Part shown: piece by piece, positions 54,373 to 58,414 of the stretch | Layout of the letters: each line of letters starts with the position of its first letter | Position numbering within the stretch: the first letter of the stretch is position 1 | Assembly (NCBI GenBank): GCA_044892525.1 | Contig: CM097885.1 | Span: 26,600,001-26,664,000, forward strand | Direction of reading: 5' to 3' | Length of the DNA: 64,000 bases | Source of the DNA: Schmidtea polychroa | Taxonomy: Eukaryota | Translations under genes and position numbers: made by a program | Notes under the pieces: generated by a model | Seen by the model: the letters and a program-made list of their open reading frames with translations, nothing else | The model's database searches: none | Told to the model about the DNA's origin: nothing

Positions 54373-57300
54373 TCGACTAAAAGAACACATGGAGAAAAAT
54401 CGTCACAGATATACGATCGAGAAAGGATGGCTATTGGTAATGGATGGCGACAAACGATTGATGTGTCTACCAGAAAGTAGACGGAAAGAAATTATGATTC
54501 AATACCACGATGGTAAATTGGGCGGACATATGTCAGCCAAGAAAACAGAAGCAAGGCTCAAACAGAAATATTACTGGCCAAATATGAGCGATGACGTGAA
54601 AGAATGGATAAAGAACTGCCTGATATGCGCAACCAGAAAAACAACGGGCAGTAAACTAAAGCCACCATTGAAACCAATGCAGATACCGCCAGAACCGATG
54701 ACAATGATTGCAATGGATGTAGTTGGACCACTACCAGAGACTAACAGTGGAAATGTGTATATATTGGTAATAACTGATTATCTGACTAAGTTCCCTGAAG
54801 CATTTGCGATGCCAGACCAGAAAGCACGAACGGTTGCAAGGATATTAGTGGAAGAGATCTGCTGCAGATATGGAACACCAAAACAAATCTTAACTGACCA
54901 AGGAACTAATTTCATGAGCGAGATAATAAATGAAGTGACAAATTATTTTAGAATTGCCAAATTGAGAACCTCACCATACCACCCGCAAACGAATGGTCAG
55001 ACAGAAAGATTTAACGGCATACTAATAGACATGATGTCCAATTACGTGAGTAAACATCAAAAGGACTGGGATGAATATATTAAGTTGTGTCTAATGGCTT
55101 ATCGAATGTCAATACACTCAGCAACGAAAATGAGTCCGTTTAAACTCATGTATGGAAGGGAATGCAACATGCCGATGGATCTCGAATACCAACCGCCAAT
55201 CTCACAATATATGGAGATAGATGATTATGTGACAAAGTTCAAGGAGAGAATGCAAGAAATATGGAAAACCGCAGGGATGAACATCCGATTCAACCAAGAG
55301 AGTTATAAGGAATTGCATGATAAAAAGAAGAACGTACAAAACCATCAATTTAAAATCGGAGATTGGGTTATTATAGAAACACCCGAATTAATCCCAGGAA
55401 CAGCAAAGAAATTACAACGTAATGGCAGAGGGCCATATGAAGTCATCTATGTAAACGAGAACAACGCTAGAGTGAAGTTGGTTAACAATCCACTAATTAG
55501 ACCCATTTATGTGAATACATGTCGATGCAAAGCAGTAGCGAAAACTGCCACTAAAGACCCAGAAACAAGAAGGATAATCACGAGATCACAAACAAATGCC
55601 ACAACGGAACCAGAAGTAAGCGGTAGATTAACTAGATCACAGACAAGACGAATATTCATGTTGAGAGGAGAAACAAGCAGCAGCGCCCATAAAGGAACTG
55701 AAGCAGAAAGCGAAGCTGACGCAATGGCAAGGAGCCAAGCAACATGGAATATGACAGTAAAAATAGCACGAGAAATTGTACCAGAATGGGCCGATATAAC
55801 CAATAAATACCAAGTATTGGGCAAACTAATGTTAGTAGCAGAAAGATATGCGAAAGGACGAAGATATGCCGAAGGATTACAAATACCGACTCAAATATAT
55901 GAACTAATCCGGAGATTACCAATCATGTTCCTAACAAGTGATTTGAGTAATAACTGGCCAATCCATCATGCAGCGAAAGCAGGACAAGAAAAACGAGCTT
56001 TAGAGATTATACGAATAATGGAAAACTGCAAACAATCAACAAACGTCAAAAACAGTAAAGGAAAAACTCCACTGATGAAAGCCATAGCAATAGGCGCGTC
56101 AAGAGATGTACTCAGAGAATTATTAAGAACGGGATCCACGCTGAAAGAAAAAGACAACAAACAACGAACCGTATTACGTTATGCCGTCAGGTCAAAAAGA
56201 CCTAGTATAGTGAACTTTATCACAGGAAATGCAACAACCGAAGAAGCCGAGGTGTTGGGACAGAGCATTGAACCAATTCTGGAAGCCATCAGAGGAAACT
56301 TAGACAGAACCGCAGCAATATTAATCAAATGGAAACAAAACGAATTAAGAGCGGAAGTAATTGATATAAATCAATTCCAAAACAACGAAAATATCGTACT
56401 AAGAAGCGCCATATACTCAAGACCACCAATGCCAAAAACCATTAAAGCAATATTACAGAGAAATAGAACAGAATTGACAGGTAATTGGTGGAAATGCACA
56501 AAAACACATGCGATGAAAAAGCAACTAGAAATACTAGTGTGGGAATGGCACCGGAAACAACGGAAATATCAAGGAACCAAAGAAGAACGAGAAAGTATCC
56601 ACAACGACAAAAAAGAGATAATTAAAAAATACGAGGAGATGATCAAAGCAGCAAATGTCGAGGACGACATTTTCAGGAAAACCCCGGGTGAGAGGAATGA
56701 CGACGACGACGACGACGAAAGGATGGGGGATAACGATAACAACCCAGAGGAAAACGACAGAGAACAGAATCCGGAAGGCGGAGAAACAACGAGTGATGAT
56801 GAGGAATTGGAAGAAGACGAAGAAGACCAATGTCGAGGTGAAGATCAAGGATTCGACAAAACGGAGAACAAAAAACGAAAGTCCCCACTACATAGCATAG
56901 TGTGTCGAAATCAAATCCAGCCAATCCTACTACAAAGAATATTTATAATATTAACATCCATCTGTTTAACAGAAACAAAAAATATAAGAATCGTAAGAGA
57001 AGCTTCCCAAGAAGGTGAAGCATTTATGATAAAAGTCAGTGATTACGACGGAAATGCCGTCGGAATATGTGTGCAACTAATGGAAGGAACAGGAGTAAGT
57101 TGTGATTTCAGATCGATAACAAAAGGAAAGATTTTTAGCAGCCAAAAAAGAGATCCCAGGCTATGTGGAGATTATGACATCTGTAGAGACATATCAACAG
57201 AGGAAATGGAGCTAGAAAGAGCCAACGAAACCGGAGTACATTTTCAACTCAACATTTTGGAAGAAGGTATCGAAATAGAAGATAAAGGGAGTCGATCAAT

Positions 57301-58414
57301 TACACATGTATGCATCAGAGAAGACAGAGACATATGCATAATAACTGATATGACACAAGACCACAAATTCTTCTGGGGAGAGGTCAAACCAAATACCCCT
57401 ACTGTGGTATGCGCAGGAACACAAGGGATAGTAGTATGTAAAGGAACAAGAACTGCACCAAGAAAAGACAAGCCAAAGAGTATGGCAATGAAACAAGATC
57501 CATTGAGGGGGATAGCAACCAAGAAGCCAAACAAATCAGTTAGTACAAAAACAACAACAGAGCAAAATCAAACCGAATTAATAACAACAACAACATGGAT
57601 TAACGAAGTAATTAAAGACGAAAGACGGGAAGTGCAGATAACTATTAACCTCAACAAGAAAGGTGAAGAGGTAATTACAGTCAAAAACCAGGAAGGAGAA
57701 CCAATCATAAGGATATGTGTAATGGATAAGACGGGAATAATCGACTGTACAACAACACCGATAGACAAAGGTACAGACGTTAAAATGGAGACAGGGAAAC
57801 GGAAAGAACGATACCAAGTATGTATCCTTAAGAAAGGAAGAGGAACCAGCGTATGTCAACCAATAACTCGACAAAAACCCCAATTAATAAACATACCATG
57901 GATACCCCGAGATCAAGAAGGGGGAGAGAAACGGGAAAATCACAGTCACCTAACAGAAAAAGAGAAGGAACGATTACATCAAGCATTCAAGAAAATCAAA
58001 GCACCAGAAACAAATACCACAGGTAGTACAATATTAACGACAGAAAAAACAAATAATGGAACAACGATCATCACAAAGATGATATGGATAACTAGCGCGA
58101 TAGTAAGCACGATAATAGCGTTAGCAATGATTCAGTGGATAAGAACCACCAAAAGATGTAAACAAAAACCGAGAAACCAAAGAAAATGGCCCAAAGTGGA
58201 AAAATTTGAATACGGTATTCCAACAGAGAATCTGAATCTAGAAGAATACGAGGTGGTAGAGGATCCCGGATCCAGCGGATTGTGGATGTCGGAACTACCA
58301 AGAATACCCACACCGAACGAATGGACACACGAAGTCGATATATACCGAATAACGGACGAAAGATATGGGGGAATGCGCACGCTGCATTCCGGCCCCATGG
58401 CGACACTGGTATAA
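54326..58414 (+). CDS. Polyprotein part 2: integrase, ankyrin repeats, acidic linker, type-I membrane protein
   Basis: HHCC (HDGKLGGH..CLIC), DDE (IAMDVVGP, ILTDQGTNF, TERFN) and GPY motifs. Ankyrin-like WPIHHAAKAG, GKTPLMKAI and RTVLRYAV. Hydrophobic segments at ~56924-56977 and 58079-58141. Joined to part 1 by removing one A from the A8 run at 54338-54345. Confidence 0.9.
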   Translation: MSSWKKNDMKIFNNDDRLKEHMEKNRHRYTIEKGWLLVMDGDKRLMCLPESRRKEIMIQYHDGKLGGHMSAKKTEARLKQKYYWPNMSDDVKEWIKNCLICATRKTTGSKLKPPLKPMQIPPEPMTMIAMDVVGPLPETNSGNVYILVITDYLTKFPEAFAMPDQKARTVARILVEEICCRYGTPKQILTDQGTNFMSEIINEVTNYFRIAKLRTSPYHPQTNGQTERFNGILIDMMSNYVSKHQKDWDEYIKLCLMAYRMSIHSATKMSPFKLMYGRECNMPMDLEYQPPISQYMEIDDYVTKFKERMQEIWKTAGMNIRFNQESYKELHDKKKNVQNHQFKIGDWVIIETPELIPGTAKKLQRNGRGPYEVIYVNENNARVKLVNNPLIRPIYVNTCRCKAVAKTATKDPETRRIITRSQTNATTEPEVSGRLTRSQTRRIFMLRGETSSSAHKGTEAESEADAMARSQATWNMTVKIAREIVPEWADITNKYQVLGKLMLVAERYAKGRRYAEGLQIPTQIYELIRRLPIMFLTSDLSNNWPIHHAAKAGQEKRALEIIRIMENCKQSTNVKNSKGKTPLMKAIAIGASRDVLRELLRTGSTLKEKDNKQRTVLRYAVRSKRPSIVNFITGNATTEEAEVLGQSIEPILEAIRGNLDRTAAILIKWKQNELRAEVIDINQFQNNENIVLRSAIYSRPPMPKTIKAILQRNRTELTGNWWKCTKTHAMKKQLEILVWEWHRKQRKYQGTKEERESIHNDKKEIIKKYEEMIKAANVEDDIFRKTPGERNDDDDDDERMGDNDNNPEENDREQNPEGGETTSDDEELEEDEEDQCRGEDQGFDKTENKKRKSPLHSIVCRNQIQPILLQRIFIILTSICLTETKNIRIVREASQEGEAFMIKVSDYDGNAVGICVQLMEGTGVSCDFRSITKGKIFSSQKRDPRLCGDYDICRDISTEEMELERANETGVHFQLNILEEGIEIEDKGSRSITHVCIREDRDICIITDMTQDHKFFWGEVKPNTPTVVCAGTQGIVVCKGTRTAPRKDKPKSMAMKQDPLRGIATKKPNKSVSTKTTTEQNQTELITTTTWINEVIKDERREVQITINLNKKGEEVITVKNQEGEPIIRICVMDKTGIIDCTTTPIDKGTDVKMETGKRKERYQVCILKKGRGTSVCQPITRQKPQLINIPWIPRDQEGGEKRENHSHLTEKEKERLHQAFKKIKAPETNTTGSTILTTEKTNNGTTIITKMIWITSAIVSTIIALAMIQWIRTTKRCKQKPRNQRKWPKVEKFEYGIPTENLNLEEYEVVEDPGSSGLWMSELPRIPTPNEWTHEVDIYRITDERYGGMRTLHSGPMATLV

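Follow-up and report, generated by a model that had tools for sequence, protein, structure and literature searches.

A predicted second membrane protein under purifying selection at the end of the polyprotein of a Burro-like giant retrotransposon from Schmidtea polychroa

We describe here the 3' coding region of a retroelement located in a window of 64,000 nucleotides of Schmidtea polychroa DNA (host genome assembly G000; all positions are those of the window), in which a single LTR (long terminal repeat) element with a total length of 34 kb fills the sequence from ~36 kb on. This element, whose family is designated A, is a young Burro-like giant Ty3/gypsy element, and its largest reading frame, ORF1, encodes a polyprotein in which a gB-type fusogen (Env) precedes the polymerase domains. 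The last ~500 residues of the polyprotein are predicted to constitute a separate, second type-I membrane protein, and this assignment, already proposed in an earlier sequence-only reading of the stretch, is supported by hydropathy, by selection and by a matching layout in eight other elements. The reading that we favor, while giving it somewhat less than an even chance, is that the second protein assists the gB-type fusogen where cells touch, by providing adhesion and anchoring.

The C-terminal part of ORF1 in the window copy corresponds to an open frame at 54326-58414 (1362 aa), which contains the following features.

54470..55444, + strand: integrase with GPY motif (Pfam PF17921, PF00665; GPY at 55430)
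55649..55663, + strand: RIFML, candidate protease site between integrase and ankyrins, proposed from motif recurrence
55946..56485, + strand: ankyrin repeats, clear up to 56224 and degenerate beyond (Pfam Ank_2, 4e-9)
56663..56860, + strand: acidic linker (31 D/E in 66 aa)
56912..56977, + strand: predicted internal signal-like segment, from hydropathy (candidate cuts CLT|ET or TET|KN)
56978..57202, + strand: repeat 1 (4 Cys), the most degenerate of the three
57233..57460, + strand: repeat 2 (4 Cys), seven strands predicted with low confidence (pLDDT 36)
57464..57625, + strand: Thr/Lys-rich stalk 1, with the weakest constraint
57626..57877, + strand: repeat 3 (4 Cys), modelled as a 7-stranded Ig-like beta-sandwich, probably FN3-derived
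57878..58066, + strand: stalk 2, membrane-proximal and Thr-rich, with N-glycosylation sequons
58067..58141, + strand: transmembrane (TM) helix 2 (Kyte-Doolittle (KD) 19-mer up to 1.94, at 58079), aligning with the TM helix of family D
58142..58411, + strand: cytoplasmic tail with basic stop-transfer, YEVV and terminal class I PDZ-binding motif T-L-V (58403-58411)

The proposal that integrase, ankyrins and a membrane protein follow one another in a single frame was borne out, with all the named features found in place. The integrase is identified by Pfam scores of 1e-21 (Integrase_H2C2) and 8e-13 (rve), while the Ank_2 match corresponds to aa 546-633 of the frame (55961-56224); 143 ankyrin sequences of the PDB match the ankyrin stretch at E≤0.01, none of them specific. 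The ankyrins come after the GPY motif as had been stated, although the two are ~170 aa apart, and a repeated motif resembling a protease site occurs in this stretch. Composition and hydropathy likewise bear out the acidic linker, the Thr-rich stalks, the TM helix, the basic stretch and the ~90-aa Tyr-containing tail. There are two hydrophobic peaks in the frame, at aa 863-882 and aa 1246-1272. The first, judged solely by hydropathy and the -3/-1 rule, displays an h-region (best 11-mer KD 2.61) and -3/-1 sites, and has equivalents in six other elements; the second is a single TM helix followed by basic residues, as found in type-I membrane proteins. Twelve Cys, four per repeat, are located at aa 915-1177; the Thr content rises to 10 residues in the 54 aa of stalk 1 and to 10 in the last 26 aa ahead of the TM helix, as compared with a frame average of 8%, and 3 Tyr are present in the 90-aa tail. 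Over the entire polyprotein there are four hydrophobic segments (signal 1, then TM1, signal 2 and TM2), and therefore the topology would alternate, leaving the enzymes in the cytosol.

Selection on the second protein was evaluated with 19 older copies of the family (20 BIR-linked loci were fetched, but L069 was dropped as it did not match the family). Variants present in at least three copies are synonymous in 61 cases and non-synonymous in 38 (omega 0.22), whereas for variants private to one copy these numbers are 74 and 114 (omega 0.55; Fisher p = 5e-4 for shared vs private): the second membrane protein is under purifying selection. By parts, omega amounts to 0.11 for repeats 1-2, 0.29 for repeat 3, 0.17 for the TM helix and tail, 0.63 for the first stalk, and 0.03 for the integrase. 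Three changes of Cys were seen, each private to one copy, and none is shared at any of the 12 Cys. In contigs of four other sequencing runs, 30 of 40 differences inspected (out of 85) are synonymous, against an expectation of ~1/4, and a comparison of family D with family F yields omega values of 0.07 for their ectodomain unit and 0.08 for the TM helix and tail. A sister subfamily, with ~80-83% identity in parts of the membrane protein (57009-58414), was observed in contigs of runs X1, X9 and X11; it was not located by a degenerate pattern search of G000, which gave one match.

Conservation among copies, named in the sequence-only reading as one of two points on which its claim could fall, is high: all 40 scored DNA matches (from 439 candidates) are ~100% identical across the whole 1541 nt. 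While a frameshift at about 54326-54372, at the junction of RNase H with integrase, splits ORF1 of the window copy, an uninterrupted frame of 4,770 aa or more surrounds 85 of the 130 protein matches scored (4,791 aa in 65 of these 85), and thus the family product is a single polyprotein ending at 58414.

We have compared the same slot in nine elements of this genome, all carrying env: that of the window and those of families B, C, D, E, F, G, H and I, with B and C originating from a fusogen search and a stop-broken copy of family C (L036-L038) left out. The integrase cores of these elements are 48-96% identical where complete and define ~5 lineages. In 9/9 elements ORF1 ends with a signal, an ectodomain, a TM helix and a short tail (90 aa in the window element vs about 20-50 aa in its relatives), and in 9/9 both env and the second protein lie within the Env/Gag polyprotein. 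For every Env and Gag, one second protein is thus synthesized. The C-termini of the nine elements are TLV (window), SRI, SRI, TRL, TWV, TEV, TFV, TFV and SLV; all nine have the form S/T-x-V/L/I, for which the background is 0.025 per terminus, and which is found in none of the five other ORFs of the window element. Within the window family, 47 of 49 loci end in T-x-V. Since the class I PDZ-binding consensus is S/T-x-hydrophobic at a free C-terminus (PMC4810129), the TLV of the window tail qualifies, by this consensus, as a PDZ-binding motif of class I. As the tail of Env continues into the protease, it is the second protein that supplies the natural C-terminus of the polyprotein.

The content of the slot differs among these elements. 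In families D and F (L046 ~968-1330; L071 ~4078-4440) one sandwich unit is followed by a duplicated two-Cys hairpin; these families also have twin ankyrin modules, with no MATH in ORF1 and no BIR match, and the number of domains in the slot varies from family to family. In the compact families (L039-L040, L049, L073-L077) an ORF 3' of ORF1 looks, by eye, like a DEDDh exonuclease.

The ectodomain had been described as three related Cys-containing repeats of no recognizable family. Three repeats with four Cys each are indeed present; their relatedness is weak, as the score of repeats 1, 2 and 3 against the profile of the other two is reached, respectively, by 8, 54 and 6 of 500 shuffles. When repeat 3 was modelled with AF2 (AlphaFold2) on the single sequence, seven strands were obtained with pLDDT 80-90, and in this model the repeat is an Ig-like (immunoglobulin-like) beta-sandwich; no fold was reached for repeats 1-2 (pLDDT 36). 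In VIA comparisons repeat 3 matches the de novo Ig protein 7skn with Z 8.3 (root-mean-square deviation, rmsd, 2.6, 71 residues aligned), the best Z being that with arrestin (9.7, rmsd 3.1, 98 residues). The VIA lists are headed by no canonical FN3 protein, but are nonetheless still compatible with the FN3 family.

A connection to FN3 is suggested by a chain of matches through the other families. From repeat 3 through the TM helix the window protein is collinear with the protein of the giant family D, although the margin is narrow (score 80 vs a maximum of 76 over 200 shuffles); against a profile built from the D, F and I units, repeat 3 obtains 13 bits, which none of 500 shuffles reaches. The sole PDB matches of this profile are to the FN3 region of Tie2 (E 0.07), and the sole Pfam match of unit I is fn3 (E 0.11). 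With a profile of host FN3 domains (28 stretches of 30 fetched) only 1-2 of 300 shuffles score above units I, E and F, and the ten best Atlas matches of the family B ectodomain that have a family assignment all belong to fn3 or to its clan (best score 0.92). Hallmarks of FN3 are a Trp in strand B and an L-x-P-x-x-x-Y corner. By eye, the full corner is kept in unit I and L-Q-P in units D and F; a Trp in strand B is missing from all three window repeats, of which repeat 2 retains V-K-P but not the Tyr, and repeat 3 the Tyr but not L-x-P. We consider repeat 3 as probably FN3-derived by way of this chain, without assigning it to FN3, and FN3 membership of the repeats as unproven; in the window family the domain was probably tripled and stapled by disulfides. 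The sequence-only description of the ectodomain thus stands insofar as no database relative was found, but needs to be softened, as the repeats are probably Ig-like sandwiches and degenerate FN3 domains, with the Ig-like fold modelled for repeat 3.

Direct searches with the second protein were negative. No homologue was found in a word-indexed set of 5.8 billion sequences at lengths of 276-881, 882-2515 and 2385-5000 aa; the window ectodomain had no usable match in the ESM Atlas; Foldseek gave no match at E≤0.001 against the PDB and one poor match (TM 0.14) against a viral library; the profile of the three repeats retrieved nothing meaningful from the PDB sequences; and BLASTP detected no similarity between the second proteins of the window and of family B. 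A single match among 1.84 billion representatives, to the translation of a tandem repeat, was rejected as chance, its score being the sum of 12 weak stretches.

The stretch between integrase and ankyrins contains a motif, R-I-x-M/L-M/L, that occurs seven times over both parts of ORF1, as compared with 0.1-0.2 times per part in shuffled sequences; these numbers should be read with the qualification that the pattern was picked post hoc, after being noticed in ORF1. Its sites include the RNase H/integrase border as well as the integrase-ankyrin stretch, and the motif is a candidate recognition site for the element's protease. Its position between integrase and ankyrins therefore suggests that the ankyrins are cut from the integrase, which would yield an ankyrin protein in the cytosol and, as a second module, a membrane protein. 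In its R/K-I-x-M/L-M/L form the motif is seen at domain borders of ORF1 (45460-56955) in the giant families A, D and F, and is absent from the compact families B, E and I. Two T-R-S-Q repeats are also found behind the integrase GPY motif (55574-55642), in family D as well, and in the compact families Y-P/G-L-R-S occurs immediately before signal 2; both sequences presumably resemble the nucleosome acidic-patch binding motifs of viral proteins.

The observed domain order, hydropathy, selection, recurrence and C-terminal motif can be combined in a scheme in which the second protein would act in adhesion and anchoring. Env and the second ectodomain would face the lumen, with Gag, PR-RT-RH-IN (protease, reverse transcriptase, RNase H and integrase) and the ankyrins in the cytosol; signal peptidase would free the second membrane protein, and the element's protease would free the integrase from the ankyrin module. 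Host PDZ scaffolds might then hold the second protein at junctions or at a polarised membrane, where its stalked sandwich domains would stick to the neighbouring cell and the fusogen would act; the closest functional model would be the HTLV-1 Env, whose class I motif is used at the virological synapse. As judged from the sequences, a partnership between the second protein and the fusogen is plausible. We put forward with more reservation, as a doubtful proposal, a general form of this scheme, according to which planarian gag-env-pol elements would be two-glycoprotein viruses that, having a gB-type fusogen before pol, captured after it an FN3-type, PDZ-anchored adhesion molecule to build a virological synapse; in the window family this exchangeable tropism module would have been tripled, disulfide-stapled and diverged beyond recognition.

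Several observations weigh against this interpretation. Cleavage by signal peptidase, display at the cell surface, anchoring through PDZ proteins and adhesion are all steps that we infer, and the signal segment falls short of the TM helix in both strength and length. The nine elements correspond to ~5 lineages with shared ancestry, and so the nine occurrences of the C-terminal motif represent fewer than nine independent events; in addition, element E was chosen for its PDZ motif. Both the sequence and the number of domains of the ectodomain differ greatly between families, which receptor or immune arms races would explain equally well. The structural matches of repeat 3 are generic (Z 7-9.7, the best being arrestin), and the scores that make up the chain to FN3 are weak: repeats 1-3 have no Pfam match at E≤10, fn3 included; the host FN3 profile separates them poorly from shuffled sequences (139, 14 and 23 of 300 shuffles for repeats 1, 2 and 3); and hhalign gives a probability of 1.6% for the repeats against the D, F and I units.

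Of the competing explanations, the one that survives best is that of a host-modulating surface protein, which would use its PDZ motif to take over signalling in polarity or survival, in the way that rabies G uses MAST2, or its ectodomain to prevent re-infection or to shield the cell; it would do so in partnership with the anti-death cargo rather than in entry. The element does carry IAP, TRAF, MATH and ankyrins, the IAP of Burro1 is reported to protect stem cells (PMC13465017, citing Lee et al. 2026), and there are viral PDZ motifs known to act on survival and on junctions (PMC4810129); Ad9 E4ORF1 has TLV as well. However, no TRAF or IAP match was seen, within the stretches fetched, in compact relatives that possess a comparable protein, and the protein is part of the Env/Gag polyprotein of nine out of nine env-carrying elements rather than a separate accessory ORF; on balance this explanation appears rather unlikely. 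We regard as still less likely that the protein is a receptor-binding spike of free particles that triggers the fusogen, in the manner of paramyxovirus H/G or of gD, the companion of gB in herpesviruses. Synthesis in a one-to-one ratio to a gB-type fusogen and a stalked, multi-domain ectodomain that varies between families would suit such a role, and herpes gB depends on partner glycoproteins; many class III fusogens, however, work alone, and the strictly kept scaffold-binding tail points to the cortex of the producer cell.

A decoy or signalling receptor whose tail recruits the element's own TRAF/MATH or IAP, as the sequence-only reading had proposed, might be expected from the TRAF and IAP genes directly 3' and from a tail longer than those of the relatives. 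TRAF-binding patterns are PxQxT/S, (P/S/A/T)x(Q/E)E and PxExx-aromatic/acidic; none of the three is found in the tails of the window family or of families D and F, which carry TRAF genes, nor does the second membrane protein have a TNFR-type Pfam match. Together with the compact relatives mentioned above, these results speak against recruitment, and we consider this role very improbable. A complex prediction for the tail and the MATH domain of the TRAF gene gave a median of 0.01 and was used neither for nor against it. Finally, a non-functional read-through or a decaying captured fragment, which the failure to find a true relative among the 1.84 billion representatives or in the three word-indexed searches could suggest, is scarcely credible, being largely refuted by the purifying selection, while layout and C-terminal motif are also kept across lineages.

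With respect to previous descriptions, LTR retrotransposons that carry env are usually described with one envelope protein. The descriptions of Burro1/GYPSM1 reportedly originate with Jurka 2007 and Grohme 2018. As summarized in section 7 of PMC6431247, these planarian gypsy-like elements exceed 30 kb and have an ORF1 of ~4,800 aa with Gag, MATH, an env between gag and pol, PR-RT-RH-IN and ankyrins, in addition to BIR cargo. By this published description the window element, which is longer than 30 kb, with multi-kb LTRs and an ORF1 near 4,800 aa containing Gag, MATH, env, PR, RT, RH, IN and ankyrins, is like Burro1/GYPSM1 in size, domain order, ankyrins and BIR cargo; the type of element and the ankyrins after the integrase are thus already published for Burro. 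The same section mentions neither a membrane protein following the ankyrins nor Ig/FN3-like domains or a PDZ motif. BURRO1 RNA is reported to increase upon smedwi-2 RNAi (PMC8532177). GAG-ENV-POL errantiviruses of the HSV/gB type of Platyhelminthes, Nematoda and Bryozoa likewise have a gB-type env before pol and are young and multi-copy (PMC13524379), but the terms fibronectin, ankyrin, attachment and accessory do not appear in the main text of that study, whose analysis is limited to the env ectodomain. In the literature searched, which includes section 7 of PMC6431247 and, by term, PMC13524379, the second membrane protein is undescribed, although the figures, supplements or Repbase entry of Burro may annotate it.

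Partial parallels exist elsewhere. The HTLV-1 Env binds DLG1 through its class I motif, which aids cell-to-cell fusion (PMC4810129); like the window protein it is a retroviral membrane protein with such a motif at its C-terminus, tied to cell-to-cell spread, but there the motif is placed on the fusogen itself rather than on a second, non-fusogen protein. The sORF2 of MDG1-group retrotransposons is also a retrotransposon membrane protein and serves direct cell-to-cell transfer, but is described as a small FAST-like fusogen that replaces Env, whereas the window protein is a 480-aa receptor-like protein beside Env (PMC11952523). Ankyrins, Cys-linked extracellular modules and a Thr-rich stretch are likewise found, by description, in the polyprotein of the planarian secretory cell nidovirus, which is unrelated and has FN2 instead of an Ig-like sandwich (PMC6211748). 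If our preferred reading of an adhesive, anchoring partner were correct, a selected receptor-like protein with a scaffold-binding tail would show how elements move between cells in a host whose stem cells are its germline, would offer a direct handle (an antibody target, a PDZ partner) on whether Burro elements are infectious proviruses, and would represent a retroelement parallel to the fusogen-plus-partner design of herpes- and paramyxoviruses.

The remainder of the element extends from 36140 to window-equivalent 70216, with LTR ends of the type TG...CA and a flanking 4-bp target duplication, GAGC. Its gene order is Gag, MATH, Monjiviricetes/gB-type fusogen, PR, RT, RNase H, integrase and ankyrins, followed by separate TRAF and IAP genes, as identified with Pfam.

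36140..40461, + strand: 5' LTR, ~4.3 kb like the 3' LTR (blastn 4329 nt, 99.954% vs 3' LTR)
44038..54372, + strand: first part of ORF1, with Gag, MATH, signal 1 (49702), gB-type/Monjiviricetes fusogen, TM1 (51421), PR, RT and RNase H (Pfam)
59069..60532, + strand: accessory TRAF gene (Pfam)
60673..61851, + strand: accessory IAP gene, BIR + RING (Pfam BIR 1e-15, RING)
65895-70216 (window-equivalent): 3' LTR, just past the window end

BCL2-, ubiquitin- and dUTPase-like domains gave no Pfam match in ORF1 at E≤0.1, the published detection having used a profile-profile search. Sequencing contigs over 40001-60000 contained no GT..AG joint, and were uninformative on expression or splicing. An unannotated ORF of 159 aa is present within the LTR (39584-40063), and a RING-finger ORF (Pfam 5e-12) upstream of gag at 41185-41667. 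Directly 3' of the 5' LTR, at 40470-40487, there is a primer-binding-site-like stretch, which we take to resemble a tRNA-Pro site, and the long untranslated leader contains two pairs of 53-58-nt direct repeats (42493-42839 and 43074-43257), possibly packaging or splicing signals. Same-strand copies ~29.8-29.9 kb apart occur in G000 at C2:156126762 and 156156705, and at C4:44150224 and 44180023; this spacing equals the element minus one LTR, as would be seen in tandem arrays with a common LTR or in assembly duplications.

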